DNA from: a plasmid | DNA length: 63,119 nucleotides | Assembly: GCF_056746865.1 (NCBI RefSeq) | Contig: NZ_JBWKMP010000006.1 | Strand: one strand, 5' to 3' | Part shown: positions 14,488-18,703 of the stretch, piece after piece | Position numbering within the stretch: the first letter of the stretch is position 1 | Layout of the letters: each line of letters opens with the position of its first letter | Translations under genes and position numbers: made by a program | Notes under the pieces: model-generated | Told to the model about the DNA's origin: nothing | The model's input: only the letters and a program-made list of their open reading frames with translations | The model's database searches: none

Positions 14488-15696
14488 TCAGAATTCGTTG
14501 TCTGTAGCAGGTGTGCGGGGCAGGATGTCGTCGGTGAGGGACCAGTTGGTCAGGATGCGGCGTTTCCGGTCGCGATCTGGTTGTGGTTCATCCCAGATAA
14601 GACCGAGACTGAGCATATCCCGCCGTAAGCCTTCCACCGCTTCATCAACACAGGGTTCAGGGCAGGGAAGACCAAAACGCATGGCTTCGGCCTCTGCACG
14701 TGCAACGGCCACCACGCCAGCGCCTTCAATAAATCCTTTCGTGGTATTGGCGCGGTGTAATGCATAAAACAGCGTCCTGTCCACGCCTTTCAGCCAAATC
14801 CAGTTGGGTGGCGTAAGCCGCAGGTCATGTGCATACAGCCAGACCAGCCCACTGCGGACGTAGCGATGTTGTTTCAGCCATTGCTGTGCTCCGTTGCTTT
14901 TAATCACTCTCTGGAAAGCTGATTTGGCCAGTGAATAAACAGGGGTACAGAATTTCCCACTGTCCCGTTTGCTTTTAATTCTGCATGAGAGGTTCAGTGT
15001 ATCCATGAGCTTTAATGCTGCCTTACGATCATCCAGGAAATACTGAAGACCAAATATGGCAAAGAGCGCTTTTTCATGTGGTGCCATGTCTTTCCAGGAC
15101 GTTAAAGGTTTACCCAACTGGGCCATGAAACATCGTCTTGCAGCTGCAACATCGAGCTGCATATTGGTGATGAGAGTATGCTGCTCGACAAATGCTTCCG
15201 GGGTGAGAGCAACCCGCCGTTCAGGTCGTTTGCCACCATGAAAGAGTTTTTCCGGATCACCATCTGCCAGTACAGGGGCGATAGCCAGGGACAACAAAGC
15301 AAAGATGTGTGGCAGGCGGGTAATATCTACTGGTCTGCGGGTGAAACGACTTTGTCCCGGATGTTGATACCACTCCCACAAACACCAGAGTGTCACAGGT
15401 AAGAGGTACATCCACAGAATACCTATGGTCTGCTCCATGACGTTAACCCACTGGCTATAGCTTATGTTGGCGGCGTTGTTACCGGTCATGGCAAGCAGGT
15501 TGTATCGTGGTGCTGCATAGTTATGAAATGGTCCCCAGTCAACCAGTCCCCATAAGGTATGAAGAATCAGGCAGCTGGCGTAAACCACTTCCGGCAAGAA
15601 TAACCATATAACGAATAGCAGCAGGATAAGAAGGACACCAACAGCGCCCCATATCTGCATAGGATCTTCTGCGACAGGCTGTCGATTGTAAGACAT
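14488..15696 (-). CDS. trbA: TrbA, integral membrane transfer protein
   Basis: 402-aa ORF with a hydrophobic N-terminus, upstream of trbB in the same operon. Confidence 0.75.
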   Translation of the reverse strand: MSYNRQPVAEDPMQIWGAVGVLLILLLFVIWLFLPEVVYASCLILHTLWGLVDWGPFHNYAAPRYNLLAMTGNNAANISYSQWVNVMEQTIGILWMYLLPVTLWCLWEWYQHPGQSRFTRRPVDITRLPHIFALLSLAIAPVLADGDPEKLFHGGKRPERRVALTPEAFVEQHTLITNMQLDVAAARRCFMAQLGKPLTSWKDMAPHEKALFAIFGLQYFLDDRKAALKLMDTLNLSCRIKSKRDSGKFCTPVYSLAKSAFQRVIKSNGAQQWLKQHRYVRSGLVWLYAHDLRLTPPNWIWLKGVDRTLFYALHRANTTKGFIEGAGVVAVARAEAEAMRFGLPCPEPCVDEAVEGLRRDMLSLGLIWDEPQPDRDRKRRILTNWSLTDDILPRTPATDNEF

Positions 15697-15869
15697 GACA
15701 AAGTCTCCATTTCTGGAATTTAAATCAAACGGAAAGGTTAAAAATTTATTTGCAGGCGATAAGAGCTAACCAGAGGAATTAGCCGTGTGATAAAAGGATT
15801 GTTGCAGATACGAAAGTCGTTAGAATAGCTGCGGGCGCTTGAGGCTGTATGCCGAAAGCGTTTTGTGGA

Positions 15870-15935
15870 CGGTATACAGCAGAAAGCCCCAGGCGATTTT
15901 TTTATCAATCAACCAAGGGCTCTACTGTAATGCCT
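15870..15935 (-). ncRNA. pndB: candidate PndB (Sok-like) antisense RNA
   Basis: - strand promoter-like TTGCCT-N17-TACTATAAT (15977-15943) directed across the pndC translation-initiation region; boundaries are approximate. Confidence 0.3.
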
Positions 15936-16133
15936 AGACAACATTATAGTAGCCCGATAACCGCCGTAAGGCAATGGAGGGGCTATGATGCCACAGCGAA
16001 CGTTTTTAATGATGTTAATCGTCGTCTGTGTGACGATTCTGTGTTTTGTCTGGATGGTGAGGGATTCGCTTTGCGGACTCCGGCTCCAGCAGGGAAACAC
16101 AGTGCTTGTGGCAACGTTAGCCTACGAAGTTAA
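15930..16133 (+). CDS. pndC: PndC (Mok-like overlapping reading frame)
   Basis: ATG 15930 frame MPRQHYSSPITAVRQWRGYDATANVF... overlaps pndA in a different frame, as in hok/mok. Confidence 0.5.
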   Translation: MPRQHYSSPITAVRQWRGYDATANVFNDVNRRLCDDSVFCLDGEGFALRTPAPAGKHSACGNVSLRS

Positions 16134-16140
16134 ACGTTAA
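15985..16140 (+). CDS. pndA: PndA, Hok-family type I toxin
   Basis: 51-aa peptide MMPQRTFLMMLIVVCVTILCFVWMVRDSLCGLRLQQGNTVLVATLAYEVKR (Hok/Gef signature); below the 60-aa cutoff of the ORF track. Confidence 0.85.
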   Translation: MMPQRTFLMMLIVVCVTILCFVWMVRDSLCGLRLQQGNTVLVATLAYEVKR

Positions 16141-16150
16141 CGGGCAACAC

Positions 16151-16172
16151 GGCGGCAGGTTTTCTGCCGCCG
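16151..16172 (+). terminator. terminator hairpin downstream of pndA
   Basis: GGCGGCAG-GTTTTC-TGCCGCC followed by a T-rich stretch. Confidence 0.4.
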
Positions 16173-16211
16173 CTTTGTTGCGAAGGCTGACCTCATTGCG
16201 CCCTTTCTTCT

Positions 16212-16463
16212 TCAATGAAGCGTATCCGGTATTGTTTCATTTCCCCTGAAGCCGATTAGCTCCAGCCGAATGCCTTTGCCATCGGGGGCCACGTTCTGCA
16301 TTTCGCAGATACCACGTCGGGTCATGAGTGTGAAGGCTGTCATTGCCAGCATGGCTAACGCGTTTTCCTCGCTTCCGCTGCGTTTCTCGAGAGCATCGGC
16401 AATTTCTTCTATGCTCCCCACCTGAAAGCAAGAGTCGAATTCTTTACTCCACTTTTCTGACAT
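16212..16463 (-). CDS. hypothetical protein
   Basis: 83-aa ORF from ATG (16463), weak Shine-Dalgarno; no motif recognised. Confidence 0.4.
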   Translation of the reverse strand: MSEKWSKEFDSCFQVGSIEEIADALEKRSGSEENALAMLAMTAFTLMTRRGICEMQNVAPDGKGIRLELIGFRGNETIPDTLH

Positions 16464-16614
16464 CGGATTTTCTCTCTGTATTTATGGGTAGTTATCGAAC
16501 TGAATGTGCCAGTTTTTTCAGGAGACGGCAAAGTTGAGATGATTGGTTCTGATTCAGAGCATGAGTTTCCCGGTGTGACGGGCATGTCGGGCGGATTTTG
16601 AGAAACAACAGATG

Positions 16615-16646
16615 TAAAAAAACCGACTGGTGAGGTCGGTTTTTTT
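16615..16646. terminator. bidirectional rho-independent terminator
   Basis: A7-ACCGAC-TGGTGAG-GTCGGT-T6. Confidence 0.55.
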
Positions 16647-16770
16647 ACTGTTCCGTTACAGAGTGGGTGGCTCTGACCGGAGGTCTATAACTGACGCTAA
16701 AAATGATAATTTGTTCTAACTGATTAATGTTCATGCCATAAGTTTACGGGAAAGGCTGACCACCTGATAT

Positions 16771-16801
16771 TTGCAAAATACGCAAGTCCATCCTGTATAA
16801 T
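16771..16801 (+). promoter_or_regulatory. sigma70-like promoter for the DinQ-like locus
   Basis: TTGCAA (16771-16776), 19-bp spacer, TATAAT (16796-16801) preceded by TG. Confidence 0.45.
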
Positions 16802-17028
16802 CCGCAGGTCAACCAAGCTCTGTAATGGCTAGACACATTCTGTAGCCCGCTGATATCCATCGGGACTATGGACAGCTGTGCTATTCAAAGTCCTGGCCGG
16901 ACAAACAGGTGGTGCTGCGTTTGGTGCTCTGGCCGGAGGAAGTCTCTTTTCAACTAACACTGAAAGTGCCGTTGTGACAGGCAATGTAAGAGTAAACAAC
17001 GGTGATTTCTCCAGTGATGGAGAAGCGG

Positions 17029-17142
17029 ATGATTTCCCTGTTAATCATCGTTCTCAGGGCGGTAGTTGCCGTTGCAAACGCGCTGATTGCTGTTCTGGAA
17101 CTGATCCGGGAACTCGTCTTGCTGATAAGCCTGGAAACGTAA
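17029..17142 (+). CDS. small hydrophobic peptide, candidate type I toxin (DinQ-like)
   Basis: 37-aa ORF MISLLIIVLRAVVAVANALIAVLELIRELVLLISLET with GGAG 6 nt upstream; resembles DinQ as recalled (ALIALLELIRFLL); promoter upstream and hairpin downstream. Confidence 0.45.
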   Translation: MISLLIIVLRAVVAVANALIAVLELIRELVLLISLET

Positions 17143-17143
17143 C

Positions 17144-17176
17144 TAAGGGCAGGGATTTACCGCTAACCTGCCCTTT
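17144..17176 (+). terminator. terminator-like hairpin after the DinQ-like ORF
   Basis: AAGGGCAGG...CCTGCCCTT stem followed by TTTAAC. Confidence 0.4.
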
Positions 17177-17191
17177 AACAAAAAAGAGATC

Positions 17192-17368
17192 TCACGTTAA
17201 AAATTTGTACCCTTCTTTAACTTCCAGTGCCTGCTCCTTTGACTCAAACATCAGTCTTGTTTTCCCGGGAACACCCCATGAAATGTATTCAACATCTATC
17301 CACCATTTTCCATATTCTTCATATGGCCCGGATATTACTTTTTTGACAAAGGCGTCTACCAGATTCAT
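17192..17368 (-). CDS. hypothetical small protein
   Basis: 58-aa ORF MNLVDAFVKKVISGPYEEYGKWWIDVEYISWGVPGKTRLMFESKEQALEVKEGYKFLT from ATG 17368; AGGA-type Shine-Dalgarno. Confidence 0.35.
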   Translation of the reverse strand: MNLVDAFVKKVISGPYEEYGKWWIDVEYISWGVPGKTRLMFESKEQALEVKEGYKFLT

Positions 17369-17759
17369 TGTTTTTTCCTTTTTGTGTTGAAAATAATTAA
17401 TGCCAGAGCACAGCGAAAATAATGAATGCGCTGGCTGTGATAATTGCGATTTTCTCCCATATGATATTTTTCTCATGGGGGTTTCTACGGAGATTATTTC
17501 TTCGCATTGAGATACCGGTATTCATGTTTTATCTTGGACTTTTGTTTTGTTGTCTGTCTGGCAGGCTGTTCTGCGCCCGTTTGTGACAAGGTTAGCTTAT
17601 GGGGTTAAATGGTCACGGACATCATGCGGACGGTTCCCTGTCACATGCCATCTGGTTTTTTCATTCAAATTGAGAGATATTGCTAAGTTGAGTCGCTTGC
17701 GATAGTGGACTCCTGTTTGTAAGTGAGTGCCATTGTTTATTTCATGAAGAGGATTGATT

Positions 17760-17969
17760 ATGAGCATGCCTCCTGCGATAGCTAATACTTTCTTGTTTGA
17801 AATGATGAAGAGTAAATCAAAAGACGTTACACTTGCTGCGATCTATGCATTAGGTGAAGGCCGGTGTCAGGCGGAGAACATTACTCGTGAATTACATAGA
17901 TTGAGTCAAAGTGATGATATGGAAATAAAAATTGCTGCGATTAAAGCACTTGGTCGAATTTATCGGTAA
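17760..17969 (+). CDS. hypothetical small protein with HEAT-like repeats
   Basis: 69-aa ORF with GAGGA Shine-Dalgarno; two short repeats (AAIYALGEG / IAAIKALGRI) reminiscent of HEAT/PBS-lyase repeats. Confidence 0.4.
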   Translation: MSMPPAIANTFLFEMMKSKSKDVTLAAIYALGEGRCQAENITRELHRLSQSDDMEIKIAAIKALGRIYR

Positions 17970-18040
17970 CGGCATAAGTTATCTGTTGTAATGAACAAAA
18001 GCCGGCTCATTTGAACCGGCTGTTATGGAGGGAGCTTATC

Positions 18041-18703
18041 TTAAAATACTTCGGCTACAGGCATGCCTGCAATCTGCTCCCACTCCTTACGCTTCTCCTG
18101 AATCAGGCGAGGAAAGTCGACAGGGTAATCATATCCTCGACTTGCCATAGCGTGCATGGTGTTTGATGCGGTTTCTGGATGAGTACACCATGATGGAATA
18201 GGAACCATTGGCAGGTTGATGTATTTCGTATGAATTTCCAGTGTTTTGTCGTCTGTTACAGTACGAGTGAAATTATGAATGTCAAAACCGATAACATCCA
18301 TAATGTTGCCTGGATAGATACGGACATACAACATTGTGCCATTTTTAAGGTCAATACCGAAATAAGCTCCCTGAGTTAAAGATAATCCTTCATACCCCTT
18401 CTCTGGAGAGTAGAAGCCTGACTCTTTTATTGTTTGTACAACTTTTCTTATCTTTTCTCTCCTTGTTTTTGCACGTGAATACATCCATATACCTGGCGCA
18501 AGTAATAAGAACCAACTACCAAAAGTGACAACATAATCTTCAATGTTGTCACCATAATAACGAGAACTAAATAACATCAGTGTAGATGTCAGTGCGCAAA
18601 ATAAAAAGAAAGGTATTCCTAAAAAGAAGTAAGCCTTCCTTAATACATAATATAACAACCACCAAGTTGGAAATCTGTCAGTTGTCTCTTTTTTATCTTT
18701 CAT
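18041..18703 (-). CDS. excA: ExcA entry (surface) exclusion protein
   Basis: 220-aa membrane protein immediately downstream of traY; size and position match R64 ExcA as recalled. Confidence 0.8.

Follow-up and report, generated by a model that had tools for sequence, protein, structure and literature searches.

HEAT repeats are protein-binding scaffolds, and natural proteins of the HEAT_2 family were the templates for the artificial alphaRep binders. OB folds are often nucleic acid binders. In temperate phages, a lone gene lying opposite to the late genes sits in the typical place of genes expressed from the resident prophage, and bor of phage lambda, which encodes a lipoprotein, is such an opposite-strand moron located between the lysis genes and cos/terminase. 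Members of phrog_8110 are phage proteins without an assigned function, and Hha is a small, helical co-regulator of H-NS that is carried by plasmids. We compare with these systems three small genes of an IncI1-type plasmid, found between trbA and excA in a window of 63,119 nucleotides (the whole stretch of DNA that was analysed), where the relevant features are laid out as follows.

15833..16140, plus strand: pnd, a hok/sok-type type I toxin-antitoxin locus, convergent with ORF1
16212..16463, minus strand: ORF1, 83 aa, acidic (pI 4.75), 'hypothetical protein' (WP_001291965)
16614..16694, minus strand: AgrB-like antisense sRNA (Rfam RF02891), antitoxin partner of dqlB
17029..17142, plus strand: DinQ_rel ORF (NCBIfam NF041473, 57 bits against a cut-off of 35)
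17192..17368, minus strand: ORF2, 58 aa, acidic, predicted OB-like model, phrog_8110 (WP_001054897)
17760..17969, plus strand: ORF3, 69 aa, two HEAT-like repeats, 'HEAT repeat domain-containing protein' (WP_000062603)
18041..18703, minus strand: excA, IncI1 entry exclusion, convergent with ORF3 (from the annotation of identical plasmids)

The trbA-excA region and its three small genes

The three ORFs listed in a preliminary description of this DNA were all found, with products of 83, 58 and 69 aa according to the ORF listing. That they are unassigned, as stated there, is correct as far as function is concerned but not for annotation, since RefSeq already lists all three (WP_001291965 for ORF1, WP_001054897/WP_001707309 for ORF2 and WP_000062603 for ORF3). 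The RefSeq proteins of R64 (reference record NC_005014), pTF2 and pESBL are identical to ORF1-3 or differ by one residue, identity being 100% for ORF1 in pTF2 (HTE32_RS00135) and for ORF3 in both R64 and pTF2. In PLSDB, ORF1, ORF2 and ORF3 are found in 1,389, 1,816 and 1,215 records, respectively, almost all of which are MPF_I conjugative plasmids, and the sequence of ORF3 is present in 747 of 5,426 complete E. coli genomes.

Homology and conservation across IncI1 plasmids, a check that had been proposed together with proteomics, yielded not only these RefSeq matches and an occurrence in more than 1,000 plasmids but also a signature of purifying selection, with dN/dS values of 0.04-0.21 for the three genes when diverged alleles are compared. 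For ORF1, the values are 0.15-0.20 (against alleles with 86% and 73% identity), while ORF3 spans 0.04-0.21 and its other five reading frames are broken by stop codons in every homologue. As for proteomics, mass spectrometry of E. coli harbouring the IncI1 plasmid pTF2 detected all three proteins (HTE32_RS00135, RS00140 and RS00145) at 'High' confidence, which in the case of ORF1 is the FDR confidence assigned by TMT proteomics (PMC12211044, Table S2). Abundance ratios in this dataset, given in the order SOS*, CIP and CTX, are 1.24/1.03/1.30 for ORF1, 2.12/1.08/2.03 for ORF2 and 1.08/0.92/0.73 for ORF3 (PMC12211044). Purifying selection and the detection of all three proteins contradict the idea, raised at the outset, that the ORFs might be spurious. 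ORF1-3 are real accessory genes, conserved among IncI-type conjugative plasmids and translated. This is an ordinary finding, the three being already known as annotated hypothetical proteins in more than 1,000 plasmids; in the literature, their WP accessions are not mentioned and HEAT repeats are not linked with IncI1 or with morons.

The pnd locus is recognised by the Rfam sok model (RF01794, 131 bits at 15833-15990), its Hok/Gef ORF spans 15985-16140, and it shares a hairpin with ORF1 (16150-16172). Between ORF1 and ORF2 lies a dqlB/AgrB type I toxin module, which was missing from the preliminary description. The antisense RNA reaches 50.2 bits with the AgrB model RF02891 (gathering score 40) and has a terminator hairpin at 16614-16648, and the ORF at 17029..17142, when aligned with R64 and locus L001, has a product of 37 aa in the window, a 1-nt indel close to the 3' end having changed it from 31 aa. 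At a permissive threshold, Rfam returned no RNA family in the spacer between ORF2 and ORF3, and an AGAGGA motif sits 7 nt upstream of the ORF3 ATG. The three genes had been said to be bounded by terminators and promoter-like sequences. Hairpins at 16150-16172 and 18000-18021 do score, but as terminators of the convergent pnd and excA rather than of ORF1-3, while promoter-like sequences are not above chance (four found, against 7.0 expected in shuffled sequence).

The trbA-excA region is a mosaic of independent cassettes, namely pnd, dqlB/agrB, ORF1-3 and, in other plasmids, hha. In pESBL-type IncI1 plasmids, a block containing hha replaces the equivalent of 17510-17968 in the window and excA is kept, so the 69-aa Hha/YmoA protein fills the slot of ORF3, which is of comparable size (both are about 70 aa). 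However, hha is on the opposite strand. Homology between Hha and ORF3 was rejected for want of a sequence match, and a recombination hot spot may suffice to explain their common location. The adjacency of dqlB to ORF2 and of ORF3 to excA is kept in IncI1, B/O and K2/Z plasmids, which could result from functional coupling rather than shared descent. Among the plasmids examined, those of the IncI1, I-gamma and K2/Z groups have ORF3 beside excA.

Sequence families and predicted folds

ORF1 is an orphan family of I-complex, enterobacterial plasmids. It matched nothing in family searches (Pfam, NCBIfam, PHROG and PADLOC), in a PDB sequence search or in tblastn against INPHARED phage records. A profile search of 1.84 billion representative proteins returned only 54 matches, and most of these are fragments from ORF1's own family or frameshifted variants within it, so there is no remote homology to build on. 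The AF2 model, consisting of three helices and a hairpin, is unreliable, its pLDDT of 62 being too poor for a fold search.

ORF2 is nested in a longer ORF starting at an in-frame upstream ATG (17476), from which the 94-aa form of the pTF2 annotation (WP_001707309) results. This extension is not conserved, being frameshifted in L009 and absent elsewhere, and the phage homologues begin at the same MN(L/I/V/Y) residues as the 58-aa form. In searches of Pfam, NCBIfam, PHROG and PADLOC, the sole family match of ORF2 is phrog_8110, with which it aligns end to end (E 1.9e-19, residues 1-57 on profile positions 1-58 of 59). Full-length matches were found in eighteen phage records, identity to phage members of phrog_8110 is 38-54%, and the family as a whole, with members of about 58-63 aa, is found in diverse phages within arrays of small genes, most of which lack annotation. 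Unlike these phage proteins, ORF2 is plasmid-borne, its gene faces that of a type I toxin in convergent orientation and the protein level tracks that of Tra proteins. RsgI3, the single PDB sequence match, was dismissed as a relative (E 0.35, non-significant).

In a confident model (pLDDT 88.7), ORF2 takes the form of a putative small, acidic, OB-like beta-barrel. When set against small OB-fold proteins (eS28, IF1/aIF1A, SSB/PriB and the PAN N-domain), the predicted structure has its helix after strand 4 and the sequence is only 6-19% identical. Furthermore, while OB proteins that bind nucleic acids are basic, the entire ORF2 family is acidic (for all eight members examined, the pI lies at 4.05-5.29 and the net charge at -1.5 to -9.3), which does not fit a basic surface for contacts with nucleic acids. 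The family does have conserved aromatic residues. DNA/RNA binding is what the authors of the pTF2 study suggested for ORF2. They found the full deletion to be viable, with an unchanged conjugation frequency. It lowered tra mRNA, be it through true regulation by ORF2 or through polarity. The protein rises under the same conditions as Tra proteins (PMC12211044, Table S2). Genetic coverage of the three genes consists of this single deletion of ORF2 and of the pESBL transposon screen, which covered only the homologues of ORF1 and ORF2.

The two short repeats of HEAT/PBS-lyase type that had been noticed in ORF3 are borne out by Pfam scores above cut-off for HEAT_2 (PF13646, 31.6 bits against 27.7) and HEAT (PF02985, 24.2 against 23.5), HEAT_EZ remaining under its cut-off (21.5 against 27), and by alignment with artificial alphaRep HEAT-like repeat proteins in the PDB (E 1.9e-7). 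This alignment (e.g. with PDB 4zv6) is repeat for repeat and includes the A-A-x-A-L-G motif, both repeats matching alphaRep modules and both being kept in all homologues. The periodicity is visible in the DNA, where 17833-17855 is repeated at 17932-17954 with a spacing of 99 nt (33 codons). These profile and alphaRep matches point to a helical fold. In contrast to typical HEAT proteins, which are long solenoids, ORF3 has exactly two repeats, with a period of about 33 residues and no other domain, and it is a mobile single gene of plasmids and prophages rather than part of an extended many-repeat protein. Its GRAVY is -0.12, and it has no signal peptide-like hydrophobic segment. The suggestion that ORF3 might be a small adaptor or immunity protein thus stands in part, since a binding or adaptor role is reasonable for a stand-alone two-repeat protein. 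An addiction role, proposed for all three genes from their proximity to toxin modules, has no backing.

Possible roles of ORF1, ORF2 and ORF3

The interpretation that we favour, and regard as probable, is that ORF1-3 are independent translated small-protein cassettes in a variable accessory segment, most likely protein binders with conditional benefits. All three are too small for enzymes and carry no catalytic or membrane signature, from which we infer that they most likely bind another protein.

ORF3 is shared with temperate phages, its relatives being present in prophages and in IMG/VR viral contigs, although tblastn against INPHARED phage records gave no match. They lie between terL and terS in 15 loci (thirteen viral contigs together with L007 and L008) and between lysis genes (Rz) and terS in Citrobacter loci. 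In all the prophage and viral loci with identifiable neighbours they are on the strand opposite to the late genes, each as a single gene within the late (lysis/packaging) region, which is the position of a moron. Lambda bor holds the same kind of position, but ORF3 has neither a sequence nor a fold relation to Bor and lacks a signal peptide-like segment. Upstream of ORF3, only about 45 nt before the ATG are conserved between plasmids and the Citrobacter prophage, and no promoter was identified in this stretch.

It is conceivable, if unlikely, that ORF3 is a constitutive protection gene of resident elements, which would exclude competitors by binding either an invader component or a host factor that the invader needs. 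Such a role would fit the bor-like, opposite-strand position between terS and terL or next to the lysis genes, the proximity of the plasmid gene to an entry-exclusion gene and the protein-binding nature of HEAT repeats. It would also fit the steady level of the protein, which is not tra-like (PMC12211044, Table S2). What speaks against it is that the PADLOC matches of ORF3 are only marginal (HEAT-ARM models, E 0.005-0.011), and that phage-type changes linked to IncI1 in Salmonella have already been attributed to genes other than ORF3, namely ibfA and the gene for a 1,273-aa protein elsewhere on the plasmid. We consider it quite unlikely that ORF3 is a horizontally mobile minimal exclusion factor, binding and blocking a conserved protein of an incoming phage or plasmid, for instance one for packaging or entry, with ORF2 as a perhaps comparable binder at the transfer stage.

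Proximity to toxin modules and entry exclusion had been taken to suggest addiction functions, that is, that ORF2 might be an antidote or regulator of DqlB, with ORF1 working with pnd and ORF3 with ExcA. The arrangement lends this some appeal, every ORF being convergent with one module, the dqlB-ORF2 and ORF3-excA pairs persisting in rearranged IncK2/Z and B/O plasmids, and a distant paralogue of ORF1 adjoining hok in IncK2/Z plasmids. In the pESBL transposon screen, moreover, insertions in the ORF2 homologue Hp27 were partly depleted (0.57 non-essential, 0.42 'essential for maintenance'). Nevertheless, we find it very unlikely. None of the three genes matches a toxin-antitoxin or defence family (for ORF1 and ORF2, nothing significant in Pfam, NCBIfam or PADLOC; for ORF3, no NCBIfam match, be it to ExcA or otherwise), each is found without its plasmid neighbour, and no conserved partner gene travels with any of them across contexts. 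Homologues of ORF1 exist among IS fragments, without hok, and Hp25, the ORF1 homologue in pESBL, is non-essential (score 1.00). ORF3 is carried by prophages without excA, co-occurrence with excA is not obligatory, as pESBL-type plasmids keep excA with hha in the place of ORF3, and the two proteins diverge under cefotaxime (ratio 0.73 for ORF3 against 2.27 for ExcA; PMC12211044, Table S2). As for ORF2, we rejected it as a DqlB antidote because dqlB is widespread without it (thousands of other plasmids carry dqlB/agrB and no ORF2) and because its deletion was viable in a LexA-defective strain, where dqlB is presumably derepressed and no toxicity was reported. Published transposon and deletion data indicate that neither ORF1 nor ORF2 is required for plasmid maintenance or transfer.

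That ORF3, or all three ORFs, are indel-broken pieces of longer genes, such as a decayed long HEAT-repeat protein, is extremely improbable. This possibility, which the preliminary description entertained for ORF3 together with a merger into a longer gene after indel correction, draws on the many repeats of typical HEAT proteins, on the numerous truncated or extended variants (39-114 aa) in database clusters and on the in-frame extension of ORF2 to 94 aa. However, no merger is seen, and all plasmid and phage relatives of ORF3 keep to 67-71 aa. Those of IncI1 and IncK2/Z plasmids, of prophages in Citrobacter and Yersinia and of 23 viral contigs each have a start and a stop of their own. In addition, DNA homology of the window to the Citrobacter prophages and to IncK2/Z plasmids sets in only 40-50 nt before the ORF3 ATG, and the Citrobacter match stops at the stop codon. 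The extension of ORF2, for its part, is the one that is frameshifted or absent, the phage homologues sharing the start of the 58-aa form. ORF3 is a complete protein, not a fragment. Finally, that ORF1-3 are frames open by mere chance, or artefacts of annotation, in a non-coding spacer between toxin loci and excA is hardly credible and already contradicted, for although an ORF of such size is weak evidence on its own (there are 77 of at least 25 aa in the 5.5 kb examined) and intactness proves little among mostly near-identical plasmid copies, this is outweighed by dN/dS across diverged alleles, full-length homologues of 38-54% identity in unrelated phages, the stop-broken alternative frames of ORF3 and the detection of all three proteins by mass spectrometry (PMC12211044, Table S2).

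ORF1-3 sit in a variable accessory segment by which the tra/trb transfer region is interrupted in I-complex plasmids. Seen as independent small-protein cassettes, they would be separate units, none of which would be part of the pnd, dqlB/agrB or excA modules. ORF3 would probably be a constitutively made binder of a protein from the host or from an invading element, and ORF2 probably a binder produced along with the transfer genes. The benefits that they confer may be conditional, and hence escape notice when maintenance and mating are assayed under standard laboratory conditions.

Among the major carriers of extended-spectrum beta-lactamase genes are IncI1 and related plasmids. The present standing of ORF1-3 is that of routine annotation, i.e. 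small proteins, hypothetical but conserved, from a part of the plasmid backbone already known to vary. Since they are real, translated and, in the case of ORF2 and ORF3, shared with phages, they are sensible candidates for work on how plasmids interact with their hosts and with phages.

Three conserved small genes between trbA and excA

The plasmid type of the window is I-complex (IncI1-type), conjugative, and three small ORFs lie between trbA and excA where the preliminary description had placed them. Its statement that they match no recognisable function needs qualifying: ORF1 and ORF2 are indeed labelled 'hypothetical protein', but all three already carry RefSeq annotation in R64, pTF2, pESBL and others. 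The same trbA-excA arrangement is annotated in near-identical plasmids.

Features of the trbA-excA region
14488-15696, minus strand: trbA, left flank
16212-16463, minus strand: ORF1, 83 aa, RefSeq 'hypothetical protein'
16614-16694, minus strand: AgrB-like sRNA (Rfam, 50.2 bits vs 40)
17029-17142, plus strand: dqlB (NCBIfam NF041473, 57 bits vs 35)
17192-17368, minus strand: ORF2, 58 aa, RefSeq 'hypothetical protein'
17760-17969, plus strand: ORF3, 69 aa, RefSeq 'HEAT repeat domain-containing protein'
18041-18703, minus strand: excA, right flank, then traY

Since ORFs of such size are frequent (77 of at least 25 aa within the 5.5 kb examined), the presence of three is by itself no evidence. 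What rules out chance ORFs is selection and translation. Diverged alleles reveal purifying selection in all three: dN/dS is 0.15-0.20 for ORF1 (vs alleles 86% and 73% identical), 0.04-0.05 for ORF2 (vs B/O and K2/Z alleles) and, for ORF3, 0.12-0.21 when plasmid alleles (IncI1/B/O and K2/Z) are compared with one another, 0.08-0.17 among Citrobacter-group phage alleles and ~0.04-0.09 vs Citrobacter prophage alleles, the last with dS close to saturation. Stops break every other reading frame in 11/11 ORF3 homologues examined. Translation, for which proteomics had been suggested, is documented for the IncI1 plasmid pTF2, whose supplementary proteomics table has HTE32_RS00135, RS00140 and RS00145 each at 'High' FDR confidence (PMC12211044); according to the pTF2 record they correspond, in that order, to ORF1, ORF2 in its 94-aa form and ORF3, and they are 100%, 98% and 100% identical to the window proteins. 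As for spread, tblastn found ORF1, ORF2 and ORF3 in 1,389, 1,816 and 1,215 PLSDB records, and ORF3 DNA is present in 747/5,426 complete E. coli genomes (751 plasmid places vs 16 chromosomal). The evidence as a whole establishes that the three ORFs are real, translated, independently mobile small-protein genes. Gene fragments are ruled out as well.

A mosaic region with a toxin module

A published IncI1 plasmid comparison described trbA-traY as a very variable region, into which finQ and IS609 insert. By megablast, 15700-18100 matched 1,983 PLSDB records, conjugative in almost every case. The minus strand carries ORF1, ORF2, the AgrB-like sRNA, excA and tra/trb genes, and the plus strand pndA, dqlB and ORF3; with the sRNA and dqlB between ORF1 and ORF2, the layout is therefore one of three convergent gene pairs, that is, pnd (a hok/sok-type toxin-antitoxin locus) with ORF1, dqlB with ORF2 and ORF3 with excA (entry exclusion).

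The type I toxin module at 16614-17142, which the preliminary description lacks, is DinQ-like and complete. DqlB is 37 aa vs 31 aa in R64/pTF2, its C-terminus altered by a 1-nt indel. Between the sRNA and dqlB, 16684-16850 diverges from R64/pTF2 and is ~70 nt longer; the likeness of 16809-16835 to the pnd leader (15909-15940) suggests that this stretch may hold a hok/sok-type locus remnant or have arisen through recombination with one. The LexA box predicted 5' of dqlB in pTF2, ACCTGTTTGTTCAGCCAGGA, has a counterpart on the minus strand at 16891-16910, ACCTGTTTGTCCGGCCAGGA, with two substitutions and CTG-N10-CAG retained.

Other plasmids are rearranged locally. In pESBL-type IncI1 plasmids (L009, L010, L053), hha (Hha/YmoA), on the opposite strand, replaces 17510-17968 (ORF3 and its upstream region), and the excA allele is also diverged and shorter (615 nt). 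In a published transposon screen, 'essential for maintenance' probabilities are raised over pESBL 80960-82240 (L053 2961-4241), namely Hp27 (ORF2) 0.42, Hp28 0.76, Hha 0.59 and ExcA 0.29, insertions therefore being under-represented along that stretch. pPIMMR (L002, MF554637; 2323-2391 and 3053-3588) has additional incomplete copies of the N-terminal part of ORF1 and of ORF2, which indicate local tandem duplications. In the IncK2/Z plasmid pLS45-2 (L015; 853-1025 and 4088-4961), which has two hok copies, ORF2 is split by a frameshift and is therefore probably a pseudogene.

The three proteins and their relatives

The two HEAT-like repeats reported for ORF3 are genuine: it is above Pfam cut-offs for HEAT_2 and HEAT, matches alphaRep HEAT-like modules (E 1.9e-7, PDB alignment) and shows the two copies at DNA level, 33 codons apart. 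It had been thought a possible fragment, which its relatives contradict, since plasmid alleles (IncI1, I-gamma, B/O, K2/Z) and homologues in Citrobacter (74% identical) and Yersinia (40%) chromosomes are all 67-71 aa. The chromosomal copies reside in prophages, on the strand opposite to late genes, between an Rz-like spanin and terS in Citrobacter and in the terS-terL gap in Yersinia. An IMG/VR scan gave the same picture, with 23 further loci (13 between terL and terS, 5 of Citrobacter type). Homology to Citrobacter prophages and IncK2/Z plasmids begins just 40-50 nt 5' of the ATG, and the prophage match stops at the stop codon; the mobile unit is, in essence, the gene alone. ORF3 still adjoins excA in IncK2/Z plasmids, although the region is rearranged. 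In pTF2, its protein is flat or slightly down (1.08/0.92/0.73, SOS*/CIP/CTX ratios) while Tra proteins go up, and ExcA reaches 2.27 in the third ratio (1.15/0.98/2.27) (PMC12211044). Just upstream of the homologue, Citrobacter prophages (L003-L006, 5416-5886) carry a same-strand 145-156-aa gene that has no family match and is missing from plasmids and Yersinia-type prophages.

From end to end, ORF2 matches phrog_8110 (E 1.9e-19), with full-length homologues (38-54% identical) in Aeromonas, Pseudomonas, crAss-like and Bacteroides phages, where they belong to arrays of small genes that all run in one direction and mostly lack annotation. What is conserved is the 58-aa protein, whose internal ATG is preceded by AAGGA; the N-terminal extension of the 94-aa form is frameshifted in L009 and missing in B/O, K2/Z and phage copies. 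A confident AlphaFold model from nine sequences (pLDDT 88.7) shows a small beta-barrel. The pTF2 authors suggested nucleic-acid binding, which in its simple form is disfavoured because the family is acidic throughout (pI 4.0-5.3). Like Tra proteins, ORF2 protein roughly doubles in pTF2 when the strain is LexA-defective or cefotaxime is present (PMC12211044), and its deletion in pTF2 lowers tra mRNA but not conjugation frequency; both could be explained by read-through or polarity, ORF2 being on the tra/trb strand. ORF2 adjoins dqlB in all I-complex plasmids examined, and dqlB/agrB occurs without it on thousands of other plasmids.

ORF1 matches no family profile and no PDB entry. A profile from five diverged members retrieved just 54 proteins among 1.84 billion representatives, most of them truncated variants. 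In IncK2/Z plasmids (L014 1727-1969, L015 3517-3759, L016 3738-3980), a group of 80-aa paralogues (28-37% identity) is divergent upstream of hok, not convergent downstream, and copies 73-86% identical occur amid IS fragments without hok. The protein is acidic (pI 4.75), and its model, with three helices plus one hairpin, is poor (pLDDT 62). Its pESBL homologue Hp25 was scored non-essential (probability 1.00) in the transposon screen.

Possible roles

Size, fold, charge and expression pattern, together with phage contexts for ORF3 and ORF2, lead us to infer that each protein acts through binding a partner protein. ORF3 would be a factor that the resident element expresses at a steady level, and ORF2 one that is made along with the transfer genes. 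It seems improbable that ORF3 serves plasmids and prophages alike as a minimal protein for exclusion or protection. The addiction role once proposed from proximity to toxin modules finds no support: the three ORFs have no toxin-antitoxin signature, no partner gene is conserved across contexts and the genes for which mutants are available are dispensable, the value for Hp27 in the pESBL screen (0.42) being the one loose end. The preliminary description was thus correct in observation and partly right in interpretation. The three ORFs encode conserved hypothetical proteins that had been annotated before, in a region known to be mosaic, and their interest is therefore modest.
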